The notes beneath the pieces are model-generated. The model saw nothing but the letters and a program-made list of their open reading frames with translations. It was not told where the DNA came from and ran no database searches. Shown here one piece after another: positions 18,728 through 51,093 of a DNA stretch of 64,000 bases. Both the position numbers and the translations under genes were made by a program. The stretch spans positions 193,716 to 257,715 of the forward strand of contig CAWJSC010000002.1 in assembly GCA_963845425.1 (NCBI GenBank). Direction: 5' to 3'. Source of the stretch: an uncultured Microthrixaceae bacterium. GTDB lineage: Bacteria; Actinomycetota; Acidimicrobiia; Acidimicrobiales; DATDAH01. Position 1 is the first letter of the stretch. Every line of letters begins with the position of its first letter.

Positions 18728-20179
18728 TCAGTCGGCGGTGAGCTCGTCGCGGAGGGTGCGGCGGAGCAGCTTGCCGGTGTCCGTGTAGGGCAGCTCCGAC
18801 CGGAACTCGATGTGGTCCGGCGTCTTGGAGCCCCGGAGGTGCTCGCGGCACCAGGCCCGGAGCTCGTCCTCCGTGGTGTCGTCGGCCTTGACCACGACGG
18901 CGGCGATGCGCTGGCCCCACTCCTCGTCGGGGAGGCCGATGACCGCGCACTCGGCCACCGCGGCGTGGCGGAGCAGGACGGTCTCGATCTCGGCCGGGGC
19001 CACGTTCTCCCCACCCCGGATGATCGTGTCGTCGGCCCGGCCCTCGAGGTAGAGGTAGCCCTCGTCGTCGATGTGGGCCAGGTCGCCGGTGGGGAACCAG
19101 CCCTCGTCGTCGAGCACCGAATCCATCCCGGCGTACTCACCCGAGACCTGCTCGCCCCGGACCCAGAGCAGGCCGTACCTGACCTCGGCTTCGACGCCGG
19201 GCAGGAGGCGACCGGCGGAGCCGAGCCGAGCCCGAACGGCGGGATCGTCGCTGGCCAAGGCGATCCGGTGGTCGTCGGGACCGAGCACGGCGATGGTCGA
19301 GGAGGTCTCGGTCAGGCCGTAGGCGTTGACGAAGTCGGTGTCGCCGAACGCGGCCAGGGCCCGCTCCAACACCGTCACCGGCATCGGGGCGCCGCCGTAG
19401 GCGAGGGAGCGCAGGGCGGGGAGGTGGGCCGAGCCATCGGCCAGGTGGTCGACCACCCGGGCCAGCATCGTGGGCACGACCAGCGCGTGGGTGACCGCCT
19501 CGGCCCGCGCCGTCGCCAGCCACTCGTCGGGGTCGAACTGCGGCAGGAGGACCACCCGGCGGGTGGCATAGACGTTCGACACCACGTTGGACACGCCGGC
19601 GATGTGGTAGGGCGGGACGCTGACGAGGGCGGCGGCGGTCTCGTCGGACGACGCGAACTCGACGGAGCCGAGCACGTAGGAGCAGAGGTGCTCGTGGCGC
19701 AGGACGGCGGCCTTGGGCTCGGCCGTGGTGCCGCTGGTGAAGAGGAGCAGGGCGATCGCCATCGGGTCCATGGCCCACGGCTCGGCGGGCTCGGCCTGCT
19801 CGGCGGCGGCGATCCACTCGTCGTCGGGCACCACCGTCGCCCCCAAGTCGCGCAGGCGGTCGACGAAGGCCGGGTCGGCCACCACCAGCGGACGGTCGAG
19901 TCGGTCGAGGAGAGGCGCCAGTTGCTCGTCGCTGAGGCGGAAGTTCAGCGGGGCCAACGGGATGCCGGCCCATGACGAGGCGAACACGGCCGTCGGGAAG
20001 ACGTCGGTGGCCAGGCCGACGAACGCCAGCGTGCCCGCCTCCGCCTCCTGCAGCACCCGAGCCGCTCCGCCCGCCCGGTCGAACAGCGCCTGGTAGGTCA
20101 GGCCGTCGTCGGCGCGCCCGAAGGCGACCCGGTCCCCGGCGACCTGCGTCGCCATCTCCAGCAACATCATCAGGTTCAT
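18728..20179 (-). CDS. AMP-dependent acyl-CoA synthetase/ligase
   Basis: 483 aa. AMP-binding motifs LLFTSGTTAEPK, YGLTETS, GWFPTGDLAHIDDEGYLYLEGRADD, and a terminal GKLLRR. Confidence 0.9.
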   Translation of the reverse strand: MNLMMLLEMATQVAGDRVAFGRADDGLTYQALFDRAGGAARVLQEAEAGTLAFVGLATDVFPTAVFASSWAGIPLAPLNFRLSDEQLAPLLDRLDRPLVVADPAFVDRLRDLGATVVPDDEWIAAAEQAEPAEPWAMDPMAIALLLFTSGTTAEPKAAVLRHEHLCSYVLGSVEFASSDETAAALVSVPPYHIAGVSNVVSNVYATRRVVLLPQFDPDEWLATARAEAVTHALVVPTMLARVVDHLADGSAHLPALRSLAYGGAPMPVTVLERALAAFGDTDFVNAYGLTETSSTIAVLGPDDHRIALASDDPAVRARLGSAGRLLPGVEAEVRYGLLWVRGEQVSGEYAGMDSVLDDEGWFPTGDLAHIDDEGYLYLEGRADDTIIRGGENVAPAEIETVLLRHAAVAECAVIGLPDEEWGQRIAAVVVKADDTTEDELRAWCREHLRGSKTPDHIEFRSELPYTDTGKLLRRTLRDELTAD

Positions 20180-20203
20180 GCGGGCCCTCCGGCCTCGTCC
20201 TCA
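20178..20203. repeat. 26-bp direct repeat, copy 1 (contains the ATG and RBS of the downstream acyl-CoA synthetase)
   Basis: ATGCGGGCCCTCCGGCCTCGTCCTCA is identical to 20271-20296. Confidence 0.9.
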
Positions 20204-20214
20204 CCCCGCCTGAT

Positions 20215-20265
20215 CGAAATTGCGCCGATTTGTAACGCCTGGCGTGACAAATCGGCGCAATTTCG
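20215..20265. repeat. 51-nt near-perfect palindrome (19-bp perfect outer arms) in a lower-GC 67-bp insert
   Basis: CGAAATTGCGCCGATTTGT (20215-20233) pairs with ACAAATCGGCGCAATTTCG (20247-20265). The inner arms AACGCC and GGCGTG extend the stem with one mismatch. Confidence 0.9.
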
Positions 20266-20270
20266 GATGG

Positions 20271-20296
20271 ATGCGGGCCCTCCGGCCTCGTCCTCA
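20271..20296. repeat. 26-bp direct repeat, copy 2 (contains the stop codon of the upstream acyl-CoA synthetase)
   Basis: Identical to 20178-20203. The terminal TCA is the TGA stop of the CDS 20294..21868 (-). Confidence 0.9.
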
Positions 20297-21868
20297 GCCA
20301 TACGCGATCTCCTTGGCCCACGTGTAGTCGGCCTTCCCCACCGCGGTGCGCTGCACCGCAGCCACCACCGTCACCTGCCGAGGGACCTTGTATCCCGCGA
20401 TGTGCCCGCGGGCGTGCGCCTGCAGATCCTCCAACGAGGGCTCGGCCGCGCCGTCCCGGAGCTGGACGACGGCGGCCACGCGCTGGCCGTAGGCCTCGTC
20501 CGGCACCCCGACCACAATGGCGTCGAACACGGCGGGATGGGCCTTCAGCGTGGTCTCGACCTCCTCGGGGAAGATCTTCTCTCCGCCCGAGTTGATGACC
20601 ACCGTCCCCCGGCCGAGGACCACGATCGAACCGTCCTCCTCCACCCGGGCCCGGTCCCCCGGCACCGACCACCGCACCCCGTCGACGACGGGGAAGGTGC
20701 GGGCCGTCTTCTCGGGGTCCCCCCAGTAGCCCAAGGGGATGGCCCCGGTGCGGGCCAGCAGGCCGGTACCGCCGGGGCCGACGGGACGGAAGTCCTCGTC
20801 CAGCACCGCGGTGTCGGCGTCGGCGACCAGGCGGGGGGCCTCCTCGCCCTTGTCGTGGGCCACCCGGCCCTGGGGCCCGGTCTCGGAGGCGCCGAAGCGG
20901 TTGACCACCCGGGCCTGGGGCAGCAGCTCACGCAGGTCGGCCTGGACCGACGGCGAGAGCACCGCCCCCGATGACGAGATCATCTGCAGCTCGCCCAGGT
21001 CGTAGCGGTCGCCGTTGCGCTTCAGCTCGTCGGCCAGCCGTAGCGCGAGGACGTCGCCCACCAGCTGGATGAGTTGGATCCGTTCCTCCGCCACGTAGGT
21101 GAGCGACCGGGCGGCGTCGAAGTGCCGGTCGCCGTCCAGGAAGAGCGTGCCCCCGGTGTAGAGCGTCGTCAGGGCCGTCCACTGGGCCAGGCCGTGCATG
21201 AGCGGGGCGAGGGGGATGCGACGGTCCACGCCGGTCCCCTTGCGGGCCCAGGCGCCGATGTCGGCCGGGTCGTCGAGGCGGGGGATGCCGCGCCGGGGGA
21301 CGCCCGCTCCACCGACGACGCCGAAGAAGAGGTCCTCGTGGCGCCACATGACCCCCTTGGGCATCCCCGTGGTTCCGCCGGTGTAGAGGAGGTAGATGTC
21401 GTCGTTGCTCCGGTCGAGCACCTCGATGCGCTCGGGAGAGGCGCCCGCCAGGGCGGCCTCGTACTCGTCGCCCCGGACCAGGACGTGGGGTGGGGGCCCG
21501 GCCTCGTGGACCCGATCCGCCAGGTCGGCCTCGGTGATGACGACCACCGGCGACGCGTCCTCGAAGTGGTAGCGCAGCTCGTCAGCCACGTACCGGTGGT
21601 TGAGGTTGATGGGGATGGCCCGCAACTTGTAGGCGGCGAGCATGGCCTCGAGGTACTCGGTGCCGTTGTGGACGTGGCAACCGATGGTCGAGCCGACGCC
21701 GACGCCGCAGTCCCGGAGGTGGTGGGCCAGGCGATTGGCCCGAGCCTCCAGTTCGGCATGGGTGAGGCGCCGCTCCCCGTGCTCCTCGCTGCGGACGACG
21801 ACCGCCTCCCGCTCGTCGCCGAGCTCGTCGACCACGCCCTCCCACAGATCGGCCAGCTGGTGGGTCAC
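20294..21868 (-). CDS. AMP-dependent acyl-CoA synthetase/ligase
   Basis: 524 aa. Motifs YLLYTGGTTGMPKGV, FGASETG, SVPGDRARVEEDGSIVVLGRG and GKADY. GTG start with a GAAGGAAG RBS. Confidence 0.9.
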   Translation of the reverse strand: MTHQLADLWEGVVDELGDEREAVVVRSEEHGERRLTHAELEARANRLAHHLRDCGVGVGSTIGCHVHNGTEYLEAMLAAYKLRAIPINLNHRYVADELRYHFEDASPVVVITEADLADRVHEAGPPPHVLVRGDEYEAALAGASPERIEVLDRSNDDIYLLYTGGTTGMPKGVMWRHEDLFFGVVGGAGVPRRGIPRLDDPADIGAWARKGTGVDRRIPLAPLMHGLAQWTALTTLYTGGTLFLDGDRHFDAARSLTYVAEERIQLIQLVGDVLALRLADELKRNGDRYDLGELQMISSSGAVLSPSVQADLRELLPQARVVNRFGASETGPQGRVAHDKGEEAPRLVADADTAVLDEDFRPVGPGGTGLLARTGAIPLGYWGDPEKTARTFPVVDGVRWSVPGDRARVEEDGSIVVLGRGTVVINSGGEKIFPEEVETTLKAHPAVFDAIVVGVPDEAYGQRVAAVVQLRDGAAEPSLEDLQAHARGHIAGYKVPRQVTVVAAVQRTAVGKADYTWAKEIAYG

Positions 21869-30705: not shown

Positions 30706-30754
30706 CCATTGGAGGCAATAGGGGGCGGAATCCGCCCCTTATTGCCTCCAATGG
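30706..30754. repeat. REP-like palindromic element, copy A
   Basis: CCATTGGAGGCAATAGGGGGCGG-AAT-CCGCCCCTTATTGCCTCCAATGG has a 23-bp stem with one G:T position. It lies between convergent genes (stops at 30569 and 30849). Confidence 0.85.
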
Positions 30755-51046: not shown

Positions 51047-51093
51047 CGTTGGAGGCAATAGGGGGCGGTTTCCGCCCTCTATTGCCTCCGACG
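51047..51093. repeat. REP-like palindromic element, copy B
   Basis: ...TTGGAGGCAATAGGGGGCGG-TTT-CCGCCCTCTATTGCCTCCGA... shares a 20-nt identical left arm and the TATTGCCTCC right arm with copy A. Its G:T position is shifted by one. Confidence 0.85.

Follow-up and report, generated by a model that had tools for sequence, protein, structure and literature searches.

The acyl-CoA synthetase junction and its palindrome

The window analysed here, a stretch of 64,000 nucleotides (nt) from the genome of an uncultured Microthrixaceae bacterium (referred to below as G000), contains two neighboring acyl-CoA synthetase genes, the upstream synth1 and the downstream synth2, whose junction carries a 49-nt palindromic repeat core (E49) between the two copies of a 26-bp direct repeat (Table 1). 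The products of both genes are AMP-binding enzymes with the domains PF00501 and PF13193, as is the orthologue of synth1 in the related assembly L078 (524 aa, PF00501 and PF13193). An exact look-up of the synth2 protein of the window matched no record. The origin of the palindrome and of the direct repeat around it is the subject of this study.

The initial annotation of this DNA, which was made from the letters alone, reported a 26-mer that occurs twice at the junction. This is borne out in the sequence: the 26-mer, ATGCGGGCCCTCCGGCCTCGTCCTCA, forms a perfect direct repeat that extends to 29 nt with one mismatch, and its copies bracket 67 bp. The TGA of synth1 lies inside one copy, while the ATG of synth2 overlaps the other and is preceded by GGAGGG 7 nt upstream. 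The same annotation described the repeat as a duplication of a stop codon, a ribosome-binding site (RBS) and a start codon. The stop and RBS part of that description stands, but the start part does not, because the stop-proximal copy is followed by ATC rather than ATG and the start codon itself is thus not duplicated.

The 67 bp between the copies had also been noticed as visibly low in GC and as forming a near-perfect hairpin of 51 nt with perfect outer arms of 19 bp, and both points were confirmed. The arms of the palindrome (20215-20239 and 20241-20265) are 25 nt long and 96% complementary, and their outer 19 nt are perfectly paired. The predicted RNA hairpin has a folding energy of -37.4 kcal/mol (z = -8.4), and the GC content of the element is 0.51 vs. 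0.715 for the whole genome.

Table 1. Features at the junction of the two synthetase genes, with positions counted from the first nucleotide of the window (ORF, open reading frame)
Feature	Position	Strand	Remarks
E49, 49-nt palindromic repeat core	20216..20264		GAAATT-GCGCCGATTTGT[A/C]ACGC-loop-GCGTGACAAATCGGCGC-AATTTC; one arm mismatch
Stop-proximal 26-mer copy	20271..20296	-	sense TGAGGACGAGGCCGGAGGGCCCGCAT; secondary; in this genome only
ATG-proximal 26-mer copy	20178..20203	-	native synth2 leader; RBS GGAGGG at 20185-20190; includes the first two bases of the ATG
Inter-repeat 67-bp segment	20204..20270		49-nt element; short extensions of family type at its two ends (sense CCATCC and GATCAGGCGGGG)
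synth1, upstream acyl-CoA synthetase gene, 524 aa	20294..21868	-	stop TGA at 20294-20296; from the ORF list
synth2, downstream acyl-CoA synthetase gene, 483 aa	18728..20179	-	ATG at 20177-20179; from the ORF list

A genus-restricted family of palindromic repeats

When copies of the 67-bp segment were counted in the window's own genome of 4.14 Mb, 82 matches were found at about 45 further loci. The family to which it belongs has about 50 copies in this genome, of which about 37 have the inner stem TTTGTCACGC and about 14 are of a sister type with xTGTTGCGx, some of these in tandem pairs. Alignment of both arms of every copy defined a unit of 49 nt, which consists of an outer hexamer, GCGCCGA, an inner stem of 10 nt and a loop of 3 nt, followed by the mirror image. 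The outer hexamer is GAAATT in type A and (G/A)TTCTG or GATCTG in type B, and there are at least two types of inner stem. Compensatory changes preserve the stem, as 95.7% of the cells are paired and six pairs have changed on both sides.

A covariance model (R1) was built from 38 copies, and E49 of the window scores 74 bits against it. With this model the family was detected in each of the 10 genomes of the genus, the number of hits per genome ranging from 8 to more than 90 among the matches listed. Outside the genus, 51 genomes from 45 further genera of the order were searched, and single weak hits were obtained in only 3 of them. The host genus belongs to the uncultured Microthrixaceae (Acidimicrobiia), and the relatives are metagenome-assembled genomes (MAGs) of the Microflora Danica set. 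The hairpin at the synthetase junction is one copy of a dispersed palindromic repeat family that is restricted to this one genus. Both the copy number in its own genome and the restriction to a single genus support the earlier impression that the insert is a small element that looks non-autonomous.

The copies are located close to the ends of genes. Of 36 copies in G000, 33 face a stop codon; the median distance to it is 20 nt, and 23 of these 33 lie within 30 nt. Convergent gene pairs account for 50% of the sites occupied by copies, compared to 23% of all intergenic spaces. The orientation of asymmetric copies relative to the upstream gene showed no significant bias (8 vs. 4).

Several additional observations were made on these palindromes. 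Tandem pairs of type-2 palindromes, spaced by about 70 nt from start to start, are found in G000 at C9:160548-160665, C10:889422-889540 and C17:218608-218725. In the window, positions 1948-2005 match R1 weakly (17.5 bits, E = 0.008) and may represent a decayed or divergent member of the family. Positions 30706-30754 and 51047-51093 of the window hold two intergenic copies of an unrelated palindromic family (TTGGAGGCAATAGGGGGCGG...CCGCCC..TATTGCCTCCAA), neither of which matches R1. At three sites of G000 (C10:166066, C16:266075 and C16:31230) and their orthologues in L060, L062 and L065, the species differ in the palindrome that they carry, the outer ends being common and the inner stem and loop different; in one such case a type 2 palindrome stands in place of type 1 between flanks that are still 90% identical. 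These differences suggest that the inner module of the palindromes may be replaced in place, or converted, between species. Finally, and in G000 only, the flanks beyond the element at 20265-20283 of the window and at C2:257994-258013, about 280 nt past the end of the window, agree over 13 nt (GATGGATGCGGGC). The two copies are 44 kb apart, and the orthologous copies of G005 have no common 13-nt flank. This suggests a conversion between the two copies that carried flanking sequence with it, probably in the direction from the synthetase junction to the other locus.

Alleles of the junction and the origin of the direct repeat

The junction was compared in nine congeneric genomes and nine further assemblies, and the sequences are given here in the sense of the genes. 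A GH3 glycosidase gene of 819 aa (PF00933, PF01915 and PF14310) lies between the two synthetase genes in G003, G006, L080, L081, L084, L085 and L086. In G003, L081, L085 and L086, which form one clade on the tree, synth1, GH3 and synth2 follow each other with overlapping signals at both junctions, ATGGCTGA and ...CCCCGAATGAAC. In L084, L080 and G006, GH3 is followed by at least one palindrome and then by the leader of synth2. The allele of L084 reads GH3...CTCGCATGA-CCCGCCCCACCC-[E49]-GCAGGGCCCCACCACC-GACGAGGCCGGAGCGCCCGC-ATG, and the palindromes downstream of GH3 in L080 and L084 have the same GTCAC/GTTAC mismatch between their arms as that of the window, together with the right flank CAGG. 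In G006 three different palindromes stand in a row downstream of GH3.

The sequences at both ends of the junction are well preserved. The ending of synth1, ...ATGGCTGAGGAC, is kept in the relatives, where ATGGCTGA forms a stop/start overlap with GH3, and the start of synth2, ATGAACCTGATGATG, is conserved across all of them. G006 has CGAGGACGAGGCCGGAGGGCCCGC before the orthologous ATG, the leader itself being (C)GAGGACGAGGCCGGAGGGCCCGC-ATG, and G008, L080 and L084 differ from it by minor changes. TGAGGAC is the native sequence where synth1 stops and GH3 starts, and CGCATGA is the GH3 stop in L084.

The closest relatives of G000 are G005, L078 and L079, and the clade that they form with G000 is supported at 100/99. 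They have no GH3 gene and no duplication of the 26-mer, and they read TGA-[36-nt GH3 5' remnant]-CCCACCC-[E49]-GGCTGGCT-CCGGAGGTTCCGC-ATG. The E49 of G005 is identical to the 49-mer that occupies the same junction in the window, and the arm mismatch of the window copy recurs in the orthologous copies of G005, L078, L079, L080 and L084, a variant found in only about 5-15% of the family's arms. GH3 was lost at least three times on the genus tree, as seen from a comparison of the loci L055 of G008, L056 of G007, L054 of G005 and L053 of G004 with L051 of G006, which retains the gene. It was lost independently in G008 and G007, where the palindrome at the scar is variant or, in G007, decayed, and it was also lost in G004, which has no palindrome at the junction. 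In the scars that retain a palindrome (clade A, G007 and G008) the breakpoint lies just to its left, and in G005, G007 and G008 the distance between the right breakpoint and the left side of the palindrome does not exceed about 15 nt.

We noticed that the 9-mer AGGCGGGGT (20204-20215 in the window) stands just downstream of the element in G000 and just upstream of it in G005 and L078. An inversion of the element between G000 and G005 was considered as the cause of this switch and rejected, since the arm mismatch has the same orientation in both.

Only the first 7 nt of the stop-proximal 26-mer (TGAGGAC) are native to their position; in the relatives TGAGGAC is followed instead by the 5' sequence of GH3 or by a remnant of it. 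Read from the orthologous sequences, these alleles thus show that the palindrome predates the compact junction, that the ATG-proximal 26-mer is the native leader of synth2 and that the stop-proximal copy is unique to this genome.

In the initial annotation, the 26-mer was described as an unusually long target duplication. Flanking repeats were evaluated against two nulls. At 2000 random genome positions examined with the same geometry as the 26-bp repeat, the longest flanking repeat did not exceed 13 nt, apart from two real repeats. When left and right flanks of different family copies were paired and aligned locally, flank against flank, the maximum score was 12.5, compared to the 26.5 observed for the window copy. 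A flanking direct repeat above the null was found at two of 38 copies in G000, the window locus (26 nt) and C10:827096 (11 nt). The other 36 have none (family-wide Mann-Whitney p = 0.88), nor do 40 copies from G005 and G008, so that 76 of the 78 copies tested have no flanking repeat. This result does not agree with a characteristic duplication of the target. Such a duplication is also opposed by G005, L078 and L079, where the same element occupies the same junction without it, and by L080 and L084, where the element was already beside GH3 before the junction became compact. More than a dozen comparisons of filled and empty sites revealed untidy insertions, in which the 49-mer is accompanied by 8-23 extra bases per side and sometimes replaces bases of the target. 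The compact TGA-N21-ATG junction that had been predicted as the empty site (ATGGCTGAGGACGAGGCCGGAGGGCCCGCATG) was sought in the nine congeneric genomes, in the nine further assemblies and in metagenome contigs scanned with the 25-mer of the leader, and it was found in none of them; the metagenome scan gave no hit to the 25-mer itself.

We favor the explanation that the 26-bp repeat is a scar of repair or recombination, that is, a copy of the synth2 leader inserted with the help of microhomology during the loss of GH3. We give it a probability of roughly one half; it corresponds to the repair or duplication event that the initial annotation had named as an alternative, and it is the best explanation available here. 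The ancestral order, as the relatives show, was synth1, GH3, palindrome, a short leader bearing the RBS, and synth2, and on this explanation the hairpin is an old resident copy of the family rather than a newcomer. In the lineage of G000 the loss of GH3 would not have been a clean deletion, as the body of the gene would have been replaced by a short copy of the synth2 leader located about 70 nt downstream. GH3 extends from TGAGGAC, at the synth1 stop and its own start, to about CGCAT at its stop (CGCATGA in L084-like alleles), and the leader is bracketed by the same two motifs, GAGGAC and CGCATGA, which could have guided a double template switch. If everything between the motifs is swapped for the 14-19 nt that they enclose in the leader, the exact sequence of G000 results, and a GH3 deletion with a short templated copy of the leader is therefore favored. 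Alternatively, within the same model, a slippage duplication between CGCATGA motifs could have been followed by a deletion between GAGGAC motifs. The outcome would be a leader on both sides of the palindrome and hence a 26-bp direct repeat that mimics a target duplication. We infer the template-switch mechanism and the order of the events from the end states.

Several points weigh against a scar of gene loss. No intermediate allele was found among the genomes and assemblies compared. The ATG-proximal copy of G000 is preceded by GGGGT (T-GAGGAC), whereas G006 and G008 have C-GAGGAC (with ...CC before it), and the identity between the two copies thus reaches into a context that resembles the end of synth1 (GG.TGAGGAC). 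This GG.T match would follow more simply from a true duplication of the target at a collapsed junction, while the scar model would have to invoke coincidence or subsequent conversion. At C10:827096, for which two relatives have empty sites, 11 nt of the junction are duplicated around the insertion. In addition, if GH3 was lost only once in the clade of G000, G005, L078 and L079, the GH3 stop with its CGCATGA microhomology would already have been gone.

The copy at C10:827096-827144 deserves attention in this respect. It lies between two membrane-protein genes that, at the empty sites of G005 and G003, share a 4-nt stop/start overlap (ATGA/GTGA). In G000, GCATGAGCTGG appears on both sides of an insert of 76 bp, an 11-nt junction duplication by which both ORFs remain intact. 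As read from the filled and empty alleles, this is a real junction duplication linked to the insertion of an element, and long duplications upon insertion into tight junctions thus do occur in this family. Together with the GG.T context, it makes a fresh insertion with a target duplication of 26-29 bp a serious rival at the synthetase junction, even if we regard it as rather unlikely. GH3, the old palindrome and the spacer would have been lost together by slippage between GAGGAC motifs, leaving a compact TGA-N21-ATG junction, and a family copy of about 64-67 bp with its extensions would then have entered, duplicating 26-29 bp. Such an origin would account for the perfect identity of the copies over 26 nt and for its extension to 29 nt with a single mismatch, which takes in the GG.T upstream of GAGGAC as at the end of synth1, and the variable extra bases at the other filled sites indicate a mechanism that evidently has no fixed ends. 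However, the 49-mer of the window is identical to that of G005 at the same junction, its rare arm mismatch is common to the copies of L078, L079, L080 and L084, two of which are still beside GH3, and its right flank, CAGG(C/G), also matches the orthologues. The failure to find a collapsed junction and the 76 copies without flanking repeats argue against a fresh insertion as well, and a spacer of 21 nt requires no duplication to keep both genes intact.

A more general proposal, which we consider unlikely, is that the palindromes spread by transposase-independent copy-choice with imprecise return, duplicating 11-30 nt of the target. Such a return would regenerate the stop at one end of the element and the RBS and start at its opposite end, so that operon junctions with ATGA overlaps could be colonized and both genes survive. 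If this were true, a single process would have left three footprints: the 26-mer studied here, the 11-mer at C10:827096 and the likeness of the GH3 end to the synth2 leader.

The likeness of the GH3 end to the leader also underlies the possibility of an ancient target duplication that was later homogenized. The palindrome would have entered a tight GH3/synth2 junction with an ATGA overlap, duplicating about 17-30 nt of the 3' end of GH3; one copy would have become the synth2 leader, the copies of G000 would have been homogenized by conversion, and GH3 would then have been deleted between GAGGAC motifs. Consistent with this, the leader resembles the 3' end of GH3 in the tight alleles (L080 GGAGCCCCCGCATGA vs. 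GGAGACCCCCGAATGA in the tight alleles), the element of L084 is flanked by the GH3 end GGAGCCGCTCGCATGA and the leader GGAGCGCCCGCATGA, and the tight-junction alleles (G003, L081, L085 and L086) belong to one clade. The similarity is, however, short, and part of it is imposed by the RBS, the spacing and the ATGA, while GAGGACGAGGCC has no counterpart in the conserved C-terminus of GH3 (ATCACCGTGGAG). Given that two extra events, a conversion and then a deletion, are also needed, and that the tree does not resolve the direction of change (insertion vs. deletion), we find this history improbable.

As the genome is a MAG of 17 contigs and its congeneric relatives are Microflora Danica MAGs, an artefact of assembly or polishing, in which a 93-bp unit was mis-assembled around the hairpin, should also be considered. 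It is very improbable, because both ORFs are intact and of full length, the element is found at this junction in five independent assemblies, and only two of 38 copies in the assembly have flanking repeats, the other one of which fits verified empty sites and preserves both frames.

Families of small palindromic repeats are known in detail from Proteobacteria (REP/RAYT) and have also been noted in Mycobacterium (TRIT). The synthetase junction provides a dated series of multiple alleles for one such element, from a tight operon junction to an element beside GH3, repeated loss of GH3 with breakpoints at the hairpin and, finally, duplication of the junction. The series suggests that deletions and short templated duplications use the hairpins as landmarks, that operons tolerate them and that family copies exchange sequence, flanks included. 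The lesson for annotation is that a palindrome may be flanked by a long repeat that is no footprint of transposition.

Hairpin function and comparison with known systems

The stop of synth1 and the RBS and ATG of synth2 are all intact, with the hairpin located within the 114-nt spacer. Thus, the operon is probably functional in spite of a very stable hairpin between its genes. A terminator scan of 19800-20700 detected neither an intrinsic terminator nor a U-tract, the 3' AAUUUC of the hairpin being paired within the stem, and a promoter scan found no sigma-70-type promoter. A Rho-independent terminator consisting of a GC-rich hairpin and a U-tract was rejected, as there is no U-tract. Given the position of the family, the hairpin would most likely serve as an RNA hairpin at 3' ends or between cistrons, as a barrier to exonucleases that affects stability or as a weak pause site, but it may equally have no selected role and be selfish or neutral DNA. 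The absence of a clear orientation bias fits either a bidirectional hairpin or an element that acts at the DNA level.

A selected regulatory module, with the palindrome as an operator or RNA switch of the synthetase operon and the duplicated RBS as a decoy or coupling device, appears highly unlikely to us. The hairpin has been kept at this junction across several species, and the spacer is one open frame that runs from the ATC via an in-frame TTG in the element to the proximal TGA, the 93-bp period being a multiple of three. On the other hand, about 50 near-identical copies stand behind unrelated genes, the asymmetric copies favor neither orientation (8 vs. 4), no start codon is found at the proper distance from the duplicated RBS, and the element is entirely missing in G004 and decayed in G007.

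In microhomology-mediated deletions with templated insertion or template switching, the junction receives a patch copied from nearby that is bounded by microhomologies of 5-7 nt. The synthetase junction would have the same pattern, as judged here from comparative sequence alone.

REP and REPIN sequences are short palindromes mobilized by RAYT transposases in Proteobacteria and other bacteria (PMC3733652, PMC3116915), and in REP sequences one end of the palindrome is marked by a conserved tetranucleotide, GTAG or CGTC (PMC3733652). The family described here resembles them in being short, palindromic and extragenic, in having tens of copies per genome at the 3' ends of genes and between convergent genes, and in its restriction to one lineage, its sequence sub-families and its occasional tandem pairs. 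It differs in that its unit is a single 49-nt hairpin rather than an inverted REP doublet and that its host belongs to the Actinomycetota, class Acidimicrobiia. A six-frame search of the genome, which is 96.8% complete, gave no match to PF01797 (IS200/IS605-type Y1/RAYT), while control genomes were positive. GTAG, CTAC, CGTC and GACG are absent from the ends of the element in the alignment of 38 copies, where the ends are GAAATT/AATTTC or (G/A)TTCTG/CAGAAC. Membership in the REP/RAYT system was rejected because neither a RAYT nor a terminal tag was found.

MIRUs are repeats of 40-100 bp that lie within operons between a stop and the next start and are co-transcribed, with both filled and empty sites known; they are arranged as tandem direct repeats, have tetranucleotide direct repeats and contain small ORFs overlapping with the genes on either side (PMC3184786). 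The present element likewise lies within an operon between a stop and the next start and has filled and empty sites. In contrast, it is a palindrome without a usable ORF, and its other copies show no consistent flanking repeat. The window has 1.28 copies of the 93-bp period, and there is no ATG or GTG start at the duplicated RBS, where ATC is found. MIRU membership was rejected on account of the palindromic unit and the lack of a tandem-unit ORF.

Bacterial miniature inverted-repeat transposable elements (MITEs) such as Correia, ERIC and RUP are small, non-coding, hairpin-forming and dispersed, and they can sit in operons and alter transcripts; they have terminal inverted repeats that match a parent insertion sequence (IS) and a fixed short target duplication (PMC3184786). 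The element shares the first set of properties: it is small, non-coding, hairpin-forming and dispersed. It differs in that no parent IS was found in a search of G000 and in that a target duplication is absent from 76 of the 78 copies. The search of G000, the only genome covered, likewise detected no solitary arms that would bound a larger element, and MAGs can lack copies of IS elements. A MITE with a target duplication of fixed length was rejected, as only two of the 78 copies exceed the null, at 26 and 11 nt.

The TRIT of Mycobacterium is a conserved and largely bidirectional palindromic stem-loop that occurs in many copies, is tied to stop codons and is restricted to its genus (PMC3152330; RNIE paper), with its center at about -8 relative to the stop codon (PMC3152330). 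The two families have in common that they are actinobacterial, palindromic, multicopy, confined to one genus and narrowly positioned next to stop codons. They differ in that position, which is about +20 after the stop in the family described here vs. about -8 in TRIT, and no sequence similarity between them is apparent. An Rfam 15 cmscan of 19900-20600 (E ≤ 1) returned only two chance hits to miRNA hairpins, the presence of a TRIT model in Rfam being unconfirmed. Literature searches found no such small palindromic repeat family described for Acidimicrobiia. The palindromes of this uncultured Microthrixaceae genus are a new family of REP-like or TRIT-like repeats in a new lineage.

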